From NCBI GenBank assembly GCA_963790475.1, contig CAWBOS010000012.1, positions 896,001 through 960,000 on the forward strand: DNA of 64,000 nucleotides, in the 5' to 3' direction. The position numbers and the translations under genes are program-made. Source of the stretch: an uncultured delta proteobacterium. Its GTDB lineage: Bacteria > Desulfobacterota > RBG-13-43-22. Below the pieces are notes generated by a model. It was given only the letters and a program-made list of their open reading frames with translations. It searched no databases and was not told the origin of the DNA. This document shows, one piece after another, positions 13,051-17,795 of this stretch; position 1 is the stretch's first letter, and each line of letters starts with the position of its first letter.

Positions 13051-14243
13051 TGGCCCGAAAAACCATAGGCAGCGGCAAGGCCGGGAGGCCTGCCATGGTT
13101 ATTCCGTTGGAGGGGATAGAAGGGCTCTTTTCCCGGGTGGCAGCCATACTGGATCGGGCCCGGTCCAACGTAGTGCGCCAGGTCAACAGTGAGATAATTT
13201 TAGCCTATTGGCACATCGGGAAAGAAATCGTTCAGGAAATTCAGGGCGGAGATGAGCGTGCCGAATACGGCCTGCAGGTCATAGAACAGCTTTCCGCGAA
13301 GCTGACCCAAAGGTACGGGCGTGGTTATTCCACCACCAACCTGCGCTACTTTCGAACTTTTTACACGGTTTATGCCGACCGCATCCCCGAGATTCGCCAC
13401 ATTGGAGGTGGCGAATTGAAAACGCCCGAAAAACGCCACACTCAAAGTGGCGTTTTGGATGACATGGCCTTAGCGGTCGAACAATCCGGCGCCGAGCGGG
13501 GGTTTTCTCCCCATTTAGGCTGGTCGCATTATCGGGCCTTGATGAATGTTGAAAATAAAAACGAACGCCTTTTCTATGAGATTGAAGCAGAGAATGAAGG
13601 CTGGGAGGTCGAACACCTCAAACATCAGATCCATACCTTCCTTTTTGCAAGACTTCTCAAAAGTCGAAATAAGGCGGGCGTTATGGCGCTTGCCGGTCAT
13701 GGGCAAAAGATCACCTCACCGGCTGACACGATTAAGAATCCCTATATACTCGATTTTCTTGGGTTGCCGGATTCTGATGTTTTGCATGAATCTGAGATCG
13801 AAAAAGCGATTATTAACAATCTTCAGTCGTTCCTGCTTGAACTCGGCAAGGGTTTCGCCTTTGTCGGGCGTCAAAAGCGCCTTCAATTCGACGAGGACTT
13901 CTTTTATATCGATCTGGTTTTTTACAACTGCATACTGAAATGCTACCTGTTGATTGATCTCAAGATTGGTGAGTTGACGCACCAGGATGTCGGCCAAATG
14001 GACAGCTATGTCCGGATGTTCGATGACAAATACCTGACGGAAGGCGACAGCCCGACCATCGGCCTCATCCTTTGCGCCAAAAAGAACGAAACCATTGCCC
14101 GATATTCCGTACTCAAAGACAACAGACATCTTTTTGCTTCCAAGTACATGCTCTATCTGCCGACCGAGGAGGAACTTCAGCGCGAACTGGAGCGGGAACG
14201 ACAGTTGATCGAATCTCGGCAGGTAGAAGAGGGTGGCCGTTGA
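13050..14243 (+). CDS. YhcG/DUF1016 PD-(D/E)xK nuclease family protein
   Basis: [55 protein letters not shown] overlaps the mod TGA. Confidence 0.9.
13392..13456. repeat. Two tandem in-frame palindromes, ATTCGCCAC-N7-GTGGCGAAT and AAAACGCCAC-N7-GTGGCGTTTT
   Basis: Read directly; centres 39 bp (13 codons) apart in the YhcG linker. Confidence 0.9.
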
Positions 14244-17200
14244 TGCCGAGAAGAAGGACCCGTACAAATTTTTCCGCAGCAGCCGCAGTCCCTCTGCCCA
14301 GCCGCCGAAGCAATAACCATTCGGCCCTGCAGTTTGCCTATAAGCTGGTTCTCAACCAATGGCTGCTTGGATTGTTCGAAGTGGAGCGTTTCGAGCAATT
14401 GGCCGAGCATCTGCGCGATGAAAAGCTGGAGGGTTTGGACGAGAATAATATCCATCGCCTCCACCACGCCCTTGCTGCGCACTTTCCGAATCTGCCGGAG
14501 CTGACCGAACAATGGCTGCTGGAGTACGATCAGAACATCGTCCGCCATACCCAACGCCTAAACGACCGACGAATCAGCCGAGGCGAGGCGCCCATTGTCT
14601 GGAAATATTTTCAGTATTTATCGCTGCTTTTTACTGAGATATACCTTGACCGCTATTTCAGCGATGCGCAGGCCCTGTTGTCGGATATCAATGGGCGCAC
14701 TGCTGCCTTCAACGAAGGTCATGAGGAGGGCGACCGGATCACGCCCTTCGATGAGACAGCCGAGGCCTGGCCGCAGCTCAATAAGTTGTCCTTCTGGATG
14801 GCTACCGGCAGCGGAAAGACTTTGTTGATGCATGCCAATCTTCTCCAATATCGTTTTTACCTGGAAAAACACAGCCGAACGCGTGATCTAAATCGGATCA
14901 TTCTTCTGACGCCAAACGAAGGGCTCTCCCAGCAACATCTGCGAGAGTTTGAGATAGCCGGAATCGACGCCGAACTTTTCAACAAAGATGGGCGCGGTCT
15001 GTTCGCCGGCCAAGCGGTTGAGATTCTCGACATCCATAAGCTCAAGGACGAGATGGGAGATAAAACCGTCGCCGTGGAAGCCTTCGAGGGCAACAATCTG
15101 GTGCTGATCGATGAAGGGCACCGCGGGACCTCCGCCGGCGACGAGGGGACCTGGATGCGTTTTCGTAATACCCTGTGCGAGAAGGGCTTTTCCTTTGAGT
15201 ATTCAGCCACTTTTGGACAGGCGGTTAAAGGCGACAAGAAACTTATTGACCTGTACGCGAAAAGTATTCTTTTCGATTACTCCTACCGCTGGTTCTACAG
15301 CGACGGGTTCGGTAAGGACTACCAGATCCTCAACCTGGACGAAACCACCCAACAGCAGAACTTGGATCTTTATCTCACGGCCTGCCTGCTCGCTTTCTTT
15401 CAGCAACAACGTCTCTATCGAGAACAAGGAAGTATCTTTCGACCCTTCCAAATCGACAAACCGCTATGGATTTTCGTTGGTGGCAGCGTCACCAAGACAC
15501 TGGCTACCCGCGACGCCTCGGACATTGTGGAAATCCTCAACTTTTTATCTCGGTATGTAGGTGACCGAGCGGGCAGTATCCAGCACATTGAGCGCGTATT
15601 AAACCAGGGGCTGGTGACCGACACTGGTCGAAACCTCTTTGCCGGGCGCTTCACCTATTTGAACACGGCAGGCCTCACGCCTGCACAAGTGTTTGACGAA
15701 ACGTTGACCACTCTCTTCAATGCACCGGGCGGCGGGCAACTCTACGTGGAGAATTTAAAGGGCGCTACCGGCGAAATTGCCCTGCGTCTCGGATCCGAAA
15801 ATGATTCCTTTGGGGTCATCAATGTAGGCGATGATACCAAACTGGTGAAACTGTGCGAAGAAAAGGGACTGGCTACCGGAGACCGGGAATTTTCGGGTTC
15901 GCTTTTCCATGAAATCAACCTACCGAGTTCCACTGTTAACCTGCTTATCGGGTCTAAGAAGTTCACCGAGGGTTGGAATAGTTGGCGGGTAGCCAATATG
16001 GGCCTGATGAACGTCGGCGCCACTGAAGGATCTCAGATCATCCAACTCTTTGGCCGGGGTGTGCGTCTCAAGGGTTATGGACAGGGCCTGAAACGTAGCC
16101 TTAAGACTCAGCTTCCAGAGGAAGTAACGCGCCCTAGGCACATCGAACTTTTGGAGACGCTTTCCATCTTTGGTATTCGTGCAAATTACATGGCTCAGTT
16201 CCGCGACTTCCTCGAAGAGGAGGGGCTGCCGACCAACGATGATCGAACCGAAATAATACTGCCGATCATCAAAAATCTGGGCACACAGAAACTCAAAACC
16301 ATCCGGTTCAAGAAGACCATTAACGGTGTTTCCACCGAGTTCGGGGATCCTTTCCGTAAGTTGGGGCCGATACCGACGCTCGGACCGCCGACCGATTACC
16401 TTCAGCGAAACCAGGTGGTTCTTAATTGGTACCCTAAGATACAATCACTTAAGTCCCGCGGAGTCACTGGCGGCGACGATGAGGCCGCACCGAACCAGGC
16501 TCACTTGTCTGTCGGTCATCTATCCTTTATAAACGTTGACGCGATATTCTTTGAGTTGGAGCGCTTTAAGGCCGAACGCGGATGGTACAACCTGAATCTT
16601 CCCCGCGAGATCATTGGGAAGCTGCTTCTAGACCAGAGTTGGTACCAGTTGCTCCTCCCGGCCGAGGAGTTGTCCTTCCATTCGTTCGACAACGTCCGGC
16701 TTTGGCAGGAAGTGGCAACCTCCCTACTAAAGAAGTACACCGAACGCTATTACAGTTTTCGCAAACGTGATTGGGAACTGCCTCACCTGGAATACCAGGA
16801 ATTGAGCGAGAACGACCCCAATTTTCTTGTCCGCGAGGCACAAGGCGAGTATGGGTACCGAATCCTCATAGAGGAGTCGGAGCAGGAGATTATTGAGAAA
16901 ATCAAAGAACTCAAAACGCTGATCGAGGCCGGGAATCTCCAGCCATGGGAATTCCGTGGCCTCAAAGCCATTTGGTTTGGCCGCCATCTTTATCAACCAC
17001 TGCTTTATCTCGACAAGAAAATCGTAGAAATAAGCCCGGAGCCGCTTAACAAAGGTGAGAAGCAGTTTATTGAGGACCTAAAGACCTTTCACGACGGCAA
17101 TGCCAAATTCTTCCGGGGCAAGGAACTTTATCTGCTCCGCAACCTGAGCAAAGGTCGCGGTGTTGGTTTTTTCGAGGCCGGAAACTTCCACCCTGATTTT

Positions 17201-17500
17201 ATCCTATGGCTCTTGTCAGGTGGAAAACAGCGGGTCGCTTTCGTGGACCCTAAAGGGATTCGCAATCTGGGTCCTACTGACCCCAAGATCCAGTTCTTTA
17301 GGTCAATAAAAGAAATAGAACAGCGTCTTGGAGATACTAAGGTTGTGCTCAATTCGTTCGTCGTCTCGAATACGCCATCGCATGTCATGAAGAAAAAGTG
17401 GAACATAGACAAGGAAACGATGCAAGCCCGGCACATTCTTTTCCAGGAGGAAGACCGGGATACCTATATCAGGGAGATGCTGACGGCCGTTGGTAAATAA
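14243..17500 (+). CDS. res: Type III restriction endonuclease/SF2 helicase subunit (Res)
   Basis: [29 protein letters not shown]-terminal nuclease PDF...DPKG; ATG overlaps the yhcG TGA. Confidence 0.9.
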
Positions 17501-17545
17501 TGGCTTTCGAAGTCATTTCTTGAAGGTTCAGCTACATCGCTCTAA

Positions 17546-17668
17546 AAGAAGGGTCGGACCAGGCGAACGAACTCGAACCTCTAAGAAAAAGATGAAGGAT
17601 GAGGGTAAAAAATGCATTAGAACCTCATTCTTAGACTCCAAAAGACACTTCTAAGCCGGCAACGATTC
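17546..17668 (+). repeat. Direct repeat R2, copy 1 (~123 bp)
   Basis: GGGTCGGACCAGGCGAACG...GAACCTC...TTAGAACCTC...CTTCTAAGC-GGCAACGATTC shared with 18804-18926. Confidence 0.85.
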
Positions 17669-17768
17669 CCAAACCGGAAGAGCTATAAGGGTATCAGAAA
17701 GAAGAAAGTTTTACCGAATGATCTTAAGACATCCATTGGATGGAATTGGAAAGGGATGACGACTTCTA

Positions 17769-17795
17769 AATTCGCCACTTAACTTGTGGCGAATT
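17769..17795. repeat. Intergenic palindrome AATTCGCCAC-N7-GTGGCGAATT
   Basis: Read directly; same arms and spacer length as the first yhcG-internal site. Confidence 0.9.

Follow-up and report, generated by a model that had tools for sequence, protein, structure and literature searches.

The window analysed here, 64,000 nucleotides (nt) of contig CAWBOS010000012.1 from an uncultured delta proteobacterium, contains a gene of the DUF1016/YhcG family, yhcG, with two palindromes written in frame into its coding sequence and a third, free-standing palindrome beyond the gene that follows. We describe these palindromes, their conservation with covarying arms across the family, and the possibility that they are sites for a protein borne by the locus, most simply YhcG itself. 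The yhcG gene (13050..14243, plus strand, 397 amino acids) stands between a Type III-like mod gene (9739..13050, plus strand, 1103 amino acids; Pfam N6_N4_Mtase, PADLOC MTase_III at E 2.6e-209) and a Type III-like res gene (14243..17500, plus strand, 1085 amino acids; Pfam ResIII helicase, PADLOC REase_III at E 8.9e-215), with a stop/start overlap of one base at both of its borders. Its product carries a DUF1016_N domain (residues 30-201; 131 bits against a cut-off of 32.8) and a YhcG_C PD-(D/E)XK nuclease domain (residues 226-380; 189.3 bits against 32.5), which places it in both Pfam families (PF17761 and PF06250), and it is matched by the PADLOC candidate PDC-S02 at E 7.8e-137. Upstream lies an ORF6N-domain gene (8841..9389, plus strand; PADLOC PDC-S05) with an in-gene palindrome of its own. 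ORF6N, mod, yhcG and res form one operon and, judged from the sequence, mod and res with the overlapping yhcG constitute a Type III restriction-modification operon.

Copy 1 of the palindrome (13392-13416, ATTCGCCACATTGGAGGTGGCGAAT) has 9-bp arms around a 7-nt centre and reads IRHIGGGEL; copy 2 (13430-13456, AAAACGCCACACTCAAAGTGGCGTTTT) has 10-bp arms, a 7-nt centre and A4...T4 outer bases and reads KRHTQSGVL; and the free-standing copy 3 (17769-17795, AATTCGCCACTTAACTTGTGGCGAATT) has 10-bp arms of the copy-1 type, again around a 7-nt centre. The three centres are all different (ATTGGAG, ACTCAAA and TTAACTT). A preliminary description of this DNA had reported three sites with perfect arms and 7-nt centres, the two in-gene copies 13 codons apart, and all three were found where it had placed them, as was the separation (39 nt); copy 3 does lie downstream of res, 269 nt after its stop codon rather than the 270 bp given. 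The in-gene copies had also been assigned to a linker between the YhcG domains, which does not hold: they fall inside the Pfam envelope of DUF1016_N, where they encode a loop (residues 119-137) modelled by AlphaFold2 at a predicted local distance difference test (pLDDT) value below 50, upstream of the invariant Trp158.

The motif common to the three copies, CGCCAC-N7-GTGGCG, is matched 3 times in the window and not once in 100 dinucleotide shuffles. A genome scan, which the preliminary description had proposed, showed the motif to be rare, with 3 matches in 6,340,213 bases, all in the mod-yhcG-res locus, and pairs of CGCCAC and GTGGCG at each other spacer from 0 to 30 gave 0-2 matches genome-wide. 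The two hexamers occur 880 and 913 times in the genome, against 1401 expected from base composition. Twenty relatives of the same order hold 9 scattered, chance-like matches in 6 genomes, a yhcG-like context being absent at all 9. The window yhcG contains 2 perfect hairpins with stems of at least 9, a number reached in 0 of 2000 synonymous resamplings. We also considered that head-to-head CGCCAC might be a Type III recognition site, an idea set aside because the palindrome accompanies yhcG in all contexts.

Palindromes within DUF1016/YhcG and ORF6N genes

Homologue DNA from three collections was codon-aligned on the invariant Trp158 codon, giving 172 regions of which 148 are distinct (27-100% identity), and a palindrome was called at a score of at least 8 within 180 nt upstream of that codon. 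By this measure 130 of the 148 distinct yhcG genes carry a palindrome at the same gene position, upstream of the invariant DUF1016_N Trp, with one palindrome in 104 of these genes and two in 26. Their variety is large: the distinct palindromes number 123 and the distinct inner 8-mers 83, with arms that differ almost everywhere and are still complementary. The mean best score was 10.1, as compared to 5.4 on synonymous resampling and 5.3 in other stretches of the same genes; scores of at least 9 were found at 72.6% of palindrome positions versus 0.6% of the other stretches; and in 124 of 146 genes the observed score was reached by at most 5 of 100 synonymous resamples. A codon alignment of DUF1016 homologues with a synonymous-shuffle control had been proposed in the preliminary description, and palindromy stands well above these controls with covarying arms; the covariation and the resampling lend strong, family-wide support to its suggestion of a constraint on DNA symmetry rather than on the protein.

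The compensation can be followed codon by codon. A change of CAC to CAG (His to Gln) is matched by GGT or AGT becoming TCT in the partner arm, as in L011 (ATTCGCCAGATCGGATCTGGCGAAT), L010, L012, L137, L143 and other loci. The 120 closest homologues of the window gene (72-95% identity) retain the peptides PEIRHI..GE and KRHTQSGVL, and at the codon that pairs through its last two bases with the His codon the residue is C in 62, G in 32, S in 23, Y in 3 and F in 1 for copy 1 (n=121), and S in 105, G in 10, C in 3, A in 2 and R in 1 for copy 2. Of the 242 residues, 236 are ones that an NGT codon can encode (the exceptions are Tyr 3, Phe 1 and Ala 2), and such confinement of the variation almost wholly to NGT-codable residues is a signature of constraint at the level of bases.

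The two in-gene copies of any one gene have a core in common, and from gene to gene this core changes in both copies together. Cores seen include CGCCAC, CGCCAGA, CTCC[A/G]CAAG, GGTCGCCC, TCTGCAC and TTGTGCA, as well as CGCCAG, CTCCAC, CATCAC and GGTCGC, and although the core is common to both copies, the centres and outer bases stay copy-specific. The parallel change of cores together with copy-specific centres argues for a common sequence-specific reader rather than for structure alone or simple gene conversion. Constraint on the DNA, conservation with covariation throughout the family and concerted change of the copies within a locus are direct observations from these alignments. We note in passing that the His/Gln hairpin type is correlated with Arg/Gln after WSHY; there are exceptions (IRR, or IRH with WSHYQ) and this pair is at best a clade marker. 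As to broken genes, the degraded gene L188 has a fused copy 1/copy 2 palindrome, the truncated fragment L117 has no palindrome at its break and L007 belongs to a different short family; loci L157 and L167 were also examined.

The palindromes span 17-35 nt, mostly 25-29 nt, and their outer bases are A/T (ATT...AAT, AATT...AATT or AAAA...TTTT). In single-copy subfamilies the 3' end of the palindrome stands 1-9 nt before the Trp codon, and the window subfamily has two copies and a 20-residue insert. The centre is 0-9 nt long (1 nt in 57 of the 123 palindromes, 3 nt in 28 and 7 nt in 19), and symmetry that runs into a centre of 0-1 nt, as it does in 60 of the 123, fits a two-fold duplex site better than a hairpin loop. 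Internal mismatches comprise 9 G.T/T.G, 10 A.C/C.A and 9 others, a lack of bias that gives no sign of a sense-strand RNA helix under selection. Thus the selected object looks like duplex DNA with two-fold symmetry and not like sense RNA. The likeness to tyrosine-recombinase sites that the preliminary description had drawn from the exact spacer is not borne out, as a 7-nt spacer is not conserved in the family, in which 1 nt is commonest, and the three window spacers differ.

The same phenomenon was found in ORF6N genes (PF10543), in which a palindrome with the core CAA-N-TTG and covarying arms is conserved at the LRSQIVTS position (loci L219-L248 and the window genome). In 39 distinct ORF6N genes the mean best score is 12.3, versus 4.7 in 281 other stretches of the same genes, where the maximum is 8. 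In the window the intact gene has its palindrome at 9034-9062 (14-bp arms, reading LRSQIVTSS), and an ORF6N gene remnant has one at 7788-7814 (13-bp arms, reading RISQIVISS) whose arms are spelled differently and are again perfectly symmetric. In one ORF6N paralogue, on contig 13 of the window genome, the palindrome seems to be translated in a different frame (QVVANCDHL).

Copies outside the gene and the E. coli yhcG region

Across 130 loci, which total 1.19 Mb and contain 411 other perfect hairpins with stems of at least 8, an extragenic palindrome with arms of the in-gene type occurs in 8. These are the window; L028, in which a partial second gene starts with the copy; L114, in which the copy comes immediately after the stop codon; and five members of one subclade, which have one or two palindromes 100-190 bp upstream of the start codon, the second matching the type of the own gene. 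The extragenic copies exceed the in-gene ones in length and perfection, and the DNA on either side of them has no relation to yhcG in the window, L035, L038 or L114. A different arrangement was seen in L024, where identical palindromes with 11-bp arms and identical 3' flanks lie 2 kb apart (4172-4194 and 6220-6242), the former directly after the yhcG stop codon and unrelated in sequence to the in-gene palindrome of that gene.

Copy 3 of the window starts exactly where similarity to a repeated non-coding element (17546..17768, plus strand) stops. The fallback offered in the preliminary description, that this copy is a remnant of a second yhcG, is unsupported: its arms are perfect, 6 of the 7 centre bases differ from those of copy 1, its flanks have no similarity to yhcG and a stop codon directly precedes the reading IRHLTCGEL. 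No third copy was found in the DNA covered for the three other mod-yhcG-res loci (L011, L134 and L159), and no comparable palindrome was present in the flanks of four relatives checked for an empty site. Contigs from four DNA runs over 12900-18100 contained no joint at 13.4 or 17.8 kb, their thin and fragmentary cover giving this result no weight either way.

Escherichia coli K-12 (NC_000913, locus L218) has three in-gene palindromes, at 13130-13156 (HQTMSGE), 13165-13199 (PQTPSAE) and 13205-13237 (WQTLSAK), a fourth at 13971-13995, 16 nt after the yhcG stop codon, and a fifth at 5633-5657, just after gltD. In chromosome coordinates the in-gene copies stand at about 3,368,129-3,368,155, 3,368,164-3,368,198 and 3,368,204-3,368,236, the fourth at about 3,368,970-3,368,994 and the fifth at about 3,360,632-3,360,656. 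All five carry the core CAGAC-N3-GTCTG, of which the K-12 chromosome has 6 sites, 5 of them being these yhcG-linked palindromes. The palindromes therefore occur nearly exclusively in and around yhcG in two genomes, that of the window and that of K-12. The fourth and fifth flank an 8.3 kb segment, gltF-yhcA-F-yhcG, and their arms differ (CGCCAGAC vs CTGCAGAC). In a strain that lacks the segment, gltD and nanQ have a single palindrome between them (AAATTCGCCAGACAGTGTCTGGCGAATTT, L249 2456-2484), which agrees without a difference over 28 nt with the first in-gene copy of other yhcG alleles. Of 5426 complete E. coli genomes, 947 matched this junction over at least 80% of the query. The remaining 1288 of the 2235 matching genomes have a partial match only, which in the seven partial matches listed ends at query position 55-58, about the right edge of the palindrome. 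In strain FT130 (L251, about 2030) yhcG has been replaced from the exact 3' edge of the third palindrome. Palindromes are thus located at junctions of presence/absence and of rearrangement. The segment that replaces yhcG in FT130 holds a small open reading frame (ORF) annotated as a transposase, and in the Shiga-toxin-producing E. coli 03_3469 (L250, about 760-770) an 80-nt deletion removes palindromes two and three and leaves a frameshifted pseudogene. An antisense RNA has also been reported at the yhcG 5' end (PMC7967276).

The surroundings of the window locus may be described briefly. The repeated element that adjoins copy 3 has a second copy at 18804-18926 and also occurs in three genomes of the genus, with 120-220 nt and about 80% identity between copies; in one relative it runs into the ATG of a gene judged, by eye only, to be flavin mononucleotide (FMN)-reductase-like, so it is probably a shared promoter or 5' untranslated region. 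Between the island and a conserved DoxX gene (18310-18750) sits a truncated FAD_oxidored-type gene, a 124-amino-acid ORF at 17931-18305 that aligns to the first 61 of 416 positions of FAD_oxidored only, and backbone similarity with relatives restarts at about 18260. On the other side, an ORF with a Peptidase_M78 (IrrE-like) domain (7956-8735) between the ORF6N remnant and the intact ORF6N gene, and an adenylate/guanylate cyclase gene on the minus strand (6257-7618), may mark the left part of the island. Two adjacent perfect hairpins far from the locus (42514-42548 and 42596-42628), with 13-bp and 12-bp stems and 9-nt loops, begin with TTAT, end with ATAA and are unrelated in sequence to the yhcG palindromes.

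The YhcG protein and the possible role of its palindromes

The full YhcG model is modest (pLDDT 65.2), and no solved structure of YhcG was found by sequence search. The C-terminal domain matches NucS/EndoMS (E 6.8e-5) and other PD-(D/E)XK nucleases. The N-terminal domain was modelled better in the single-copy member L032 (pLDDT 89.1), where it is all-helical, with the peptide encoded by the palindrome modelled as a short helix ahead of the Trp helix. In Foldseek the top ten rows for this domain are without exception ParB/Noc, at weak values (E 0.3-0.66), and the VIA comparison, which is independent of Foldseek, ranks the DNA-binding domain of ParB with parS first (Z 6.4, root-mean-square deviation 3.2 over 97 aligned residues), followed by Spo0J (6.2), KorB (5.5 and 5.2) and SopB (5.1 and 5.0), all below the caution level for helical folds. 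We therefore treat the weak ParB/KorB-like fold of the modelled domain as a lead and not as membership; the N-terminal, cytidine triphosphate (CTP)-binding domain of ParB is absent, as Pfam at E of 0.001 or less gives DUF1016_N and YhcG_C only. A homodimer was predicted with a score of 0.77, against 0.00 for the best of 3 controls, the mark being reached by 20 of 30 known one-chain pairs and by 1 of 23 known single chains (a rough guide, with own alignment used). Between runs at least 82% of the contacts coincide, the partner pLDDT is at least 67, and the predicted interface is symmetric and formed through residues 19-63 and 73-89.

Based on the concerted evolution of the copies, their near-exclusive occurrence, the E. 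coli junctions, the weak ParB/KorB-like fold and the predicted dimer, we suggest that the palindromes are duplex-DNA sites, for binding or cleavage, of a dimeric sequence-specific protein borne by the locus, most simply YhcG itself, a proposal to which we would give about an even chance. The palindromes would be recognised sequence-specifically by a factor travelling with the gene, most probably YhcG, acting as a homodimer with a ParB/KorB-like helical DNA-binding N-terminal domain and a C-terminal PD-(D/E)XK domain like those of NucS and restriction enzymes. The site would be written into a tolerant stretch of the coding sequence for that same N-terminal domain, so that it would move with the gene on horizontal transfer and protein and site would be inherited together, with extra copies placed ahead of the gene, behind its stop codon or at island and gene borders. 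Binding might serve autoregulation by roadblock or looping (here bracketing res) or might insulate the borders of islands, and cleavage of the sites from time to time might seed the insertions, deletions and replacements observed. If YhcG is indeed the binder, binding and/or occasional cleavage would explain both the conservation and the junctions. The preliminary description had suggested that YhcG genes may harbour a site of their own for binding, cleavage or recombination; an own site is the reading best supported, by indirect evidence, without the tyrosine-recombinase architecture.

Several observations weigh against this proposal. Eighteen of the 148 genes have no palindrome of score at least 8, and a matching extragenic copy is present in 8 of 130 loci only. 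Extragenic copies stand mostly at terminator positions and would fit an RNA or terminator reading equally well. A mutual-information scan of half-site bases versus protein columns gave no cluster of specificity residues beyond the palindrome-encoded columns, the signal outside them being diffuse, as expected from shared ancestry. The likeness to ParB/KorB is slight, its Z value lying under the caution level of the tool and its Foldseek E values above 0.1. A nuclease site within the own gene needs a protection step, which the proposal leaves unexplained. Lastly, the unrelated ORF6N family shows the same phenomenon, which could mean a general mechanism not tied to YhcG.

Alternatively, the palindromes might act as nucleic-acid hairpins, in the mRNA or in both transcripts, serving without YhcG as conditional or bidirectional terminators, attenuators or processing signs. 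The extragenic copies do lie at gene 3' ends or between convergent genes (K-12 yhcG/nanQ, after gltD, the gltD-nanQ empty site, the L114 stop and the window copy after res), many palindromes, among them window copy 2 and K-12 copy 3, carry runs of A on their left side and of T on their right, and the missing G.U bias is what would be expected if hairpins formed on both strands. However, symmetry that continues into a centre of 0-1 nt is useless to a hairpin loop, the mismatch counts lack a sense-RNA signature, and structure alone does not explain a core that is the same within a locus and different between loci. As to intrinsic (rho-independent) terminators, in which a G+C-rich hairpin runs straight into a T-run, a terminator/promoter scan listed none of the 3 window sites among the 13 terminator-like sites it found in 7500-19500, its totals were no higher than in shuffles, and copy 2 has TTTT only, bases that themselves pair with AAAA. 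A cmscan of window positions 9000-22000 against Rfam (E of 1 or less) returned only an unrelated weak match at 21041-21066. We consider hairpins acting on their own improbable.

It is also conceivable that the palindromes are attachment-like recombination sites for another enzyme, a host or element recombinase, or places of short-homology repair at cruciforms, with YhcG as mere cargo. The two copies around the 8.3 kb K-12 segment and the single one at the empty site suit such an explanation, as do breakpoints at palindrome edges in FT130, L028 and window copy 3 and the fused palindrome of L188. Set against these, the differing arms of the flanking K-12 copies and the differing centres in the window speak against strand exchange across a common spacer, a Pfam scan of 10 neighbouring window ORFs, which was not exhaustive, revealed no recombinase family, and the in-gene position is kept in every context, tight overlapping operons included, something not expected of a pure attachment site; on balance we think this unlikely. 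Far less credible is the notion that the palindromes have no function, being a quasi-palindromic protein motif kept perfect by template-switch mutation and, outside the gene, gene remnants. Single-copy subfamilies do show moderate conservation of the peptide (I-V-Q-Q-x-V-x-Q-L before P-W-G-H), which there forms the short helix of the model, and the L028 extragenic copy does begin a partial gene, but the symmetry is lost when synonymous resampling preserves the protein (5.4 vs 10.1), the arms differ at nearly every position and are still complementary (83 inner 8-mers), the extragenic copies are longer and more perfect than in-gene ones within flanks unrelated to yhcG, and in the window subfamily the peptide lies in the poorly modelled loop (pLDDT below 50).

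Relation to known systems and meaning for the family

We found no description of an in-gene palindrome in the full-text literature on DUF1016, YhcG, ORF6N and intragenic palindromes, subscription journals and supplements being outside that search. Sites within genes are familiar from other systems: in B. subtilis one parS falls within the coding sequence of spo0J, and intragenic auxiliary operators include lac O2 in lacZ and gal OI in galE. The proposed YhcG sites resemble ParB/Spo0J-parS, KorB-OB and SopB-sopC, in which a dimeric helical DNA-binding domain recognises a palindromic site of roughly 13-16 bp or more near or in its own gene; ParB is described as a large protein with a central helix-turn-helix and parS as the palindrome TGTTNCACGTGAAACA (PMC7022226). 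In contrast to that group, YhcG has no CTP-binding domain and carries a PD-(D/E)XK nuclease, its fold likeness is weak (Z 6.4), its site sequence covaries across the family and the position of the site in the gene is fixed. As with lac O2 and gal OI, a palindromic site lies inside coding sequence with a second copy outside, which in the operators cooperate, but those operators serve a separate repressor gene and are not conserved family-wide in the own gene of a possible binder.

Repetitive extragenic palindromic (REP) elements with their REP-associated tyrosine transposases (RAYT), and the end hairpins of IS200/IS605 insertion sequences, offer cases where the palindrome type covaries with the type of the adjacent nuclease or transposase gene. 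The yhcG palindrome type likewise follows gene type and copies flank the gene, whereas REPs have tens to hundreds of extragenic copies as compared to 3 per genome here (2 of them coding) or 5 linked in K-12, the main yhcG copies are in frame inside the gene, and YhcG is a PD-(D/E)XK and not an HUH protein. Tyrosine-recombinase sites (dif, att and attC) share the inverted arms of 9-13 bp and, in E. coli, the pattern of one copy at an empty site and two around a segment; unlike them, the yhcG palindromes have centres of 0-9 nt that differ between copies in a locus, and the 10 ORFs scanned beside the locus included no recombinase. YhcG is like Type II restriction and homing endonucleases in its PD-(D/E)XK fold, in being predicted to form a homodimer and in having a candidate site that is long, symmetric and rare in the genome, but this site sits in the enzyme's own gene and is conserved there.

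The parallel between YhcG and, independently, ORF6N leads us to speculate that they represent a class of "self-addressed" DNA-binding proteins, each gene carrying in frame a co-evolving palindromic address of its own product, and that YhcG cuts or bridges island borders, moving gene blocks and insulating the restriction gene. This wider proposal is rather unlikely in our estimation. Under it YhcG, a ParB-like reader joined to a restriction-like nuclease, would cause blocks of defence and fimbrial genes to insert, excise or be replaced, as at E. coli gltF-yhcG, and would insulate or time the neighbouring restriction gene, and if true it would describe a new kind of mobile or self-marking genetic unit without a recombinase. 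DUF1016 genes are reported to be enriched beside programmed inversions (PMC9881135).

What the palindromes offer the study of this family may be put more simply. DUF1016/YhcG genes are among the commonest unexplained genes in restriction-modification operons, prophages and conjugative elements, with a copy in E. coli K-12. A covarying palindrome within the coding sequence represents the first concrete handle on YhcG function, the predicted ligand being the gene's own DNA, and further handles are the predicted sites in K-12 and the naturally occurring presence/absence polymorphism that these sites delimit. The palindrome also illustrates clearly how strong selection on nucleotides shapes a protein, the variation among Cys, Gly, Ser and Arg being explained by NGT codons, with consequences for annotation, codon-based selection tests and gene recoding. 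The ORF6N parallel suggests either a wider rule, by which DNA-binding proteins of mobile elements may keep their own site in their own gene, or a mechanism not tied to YhcG.

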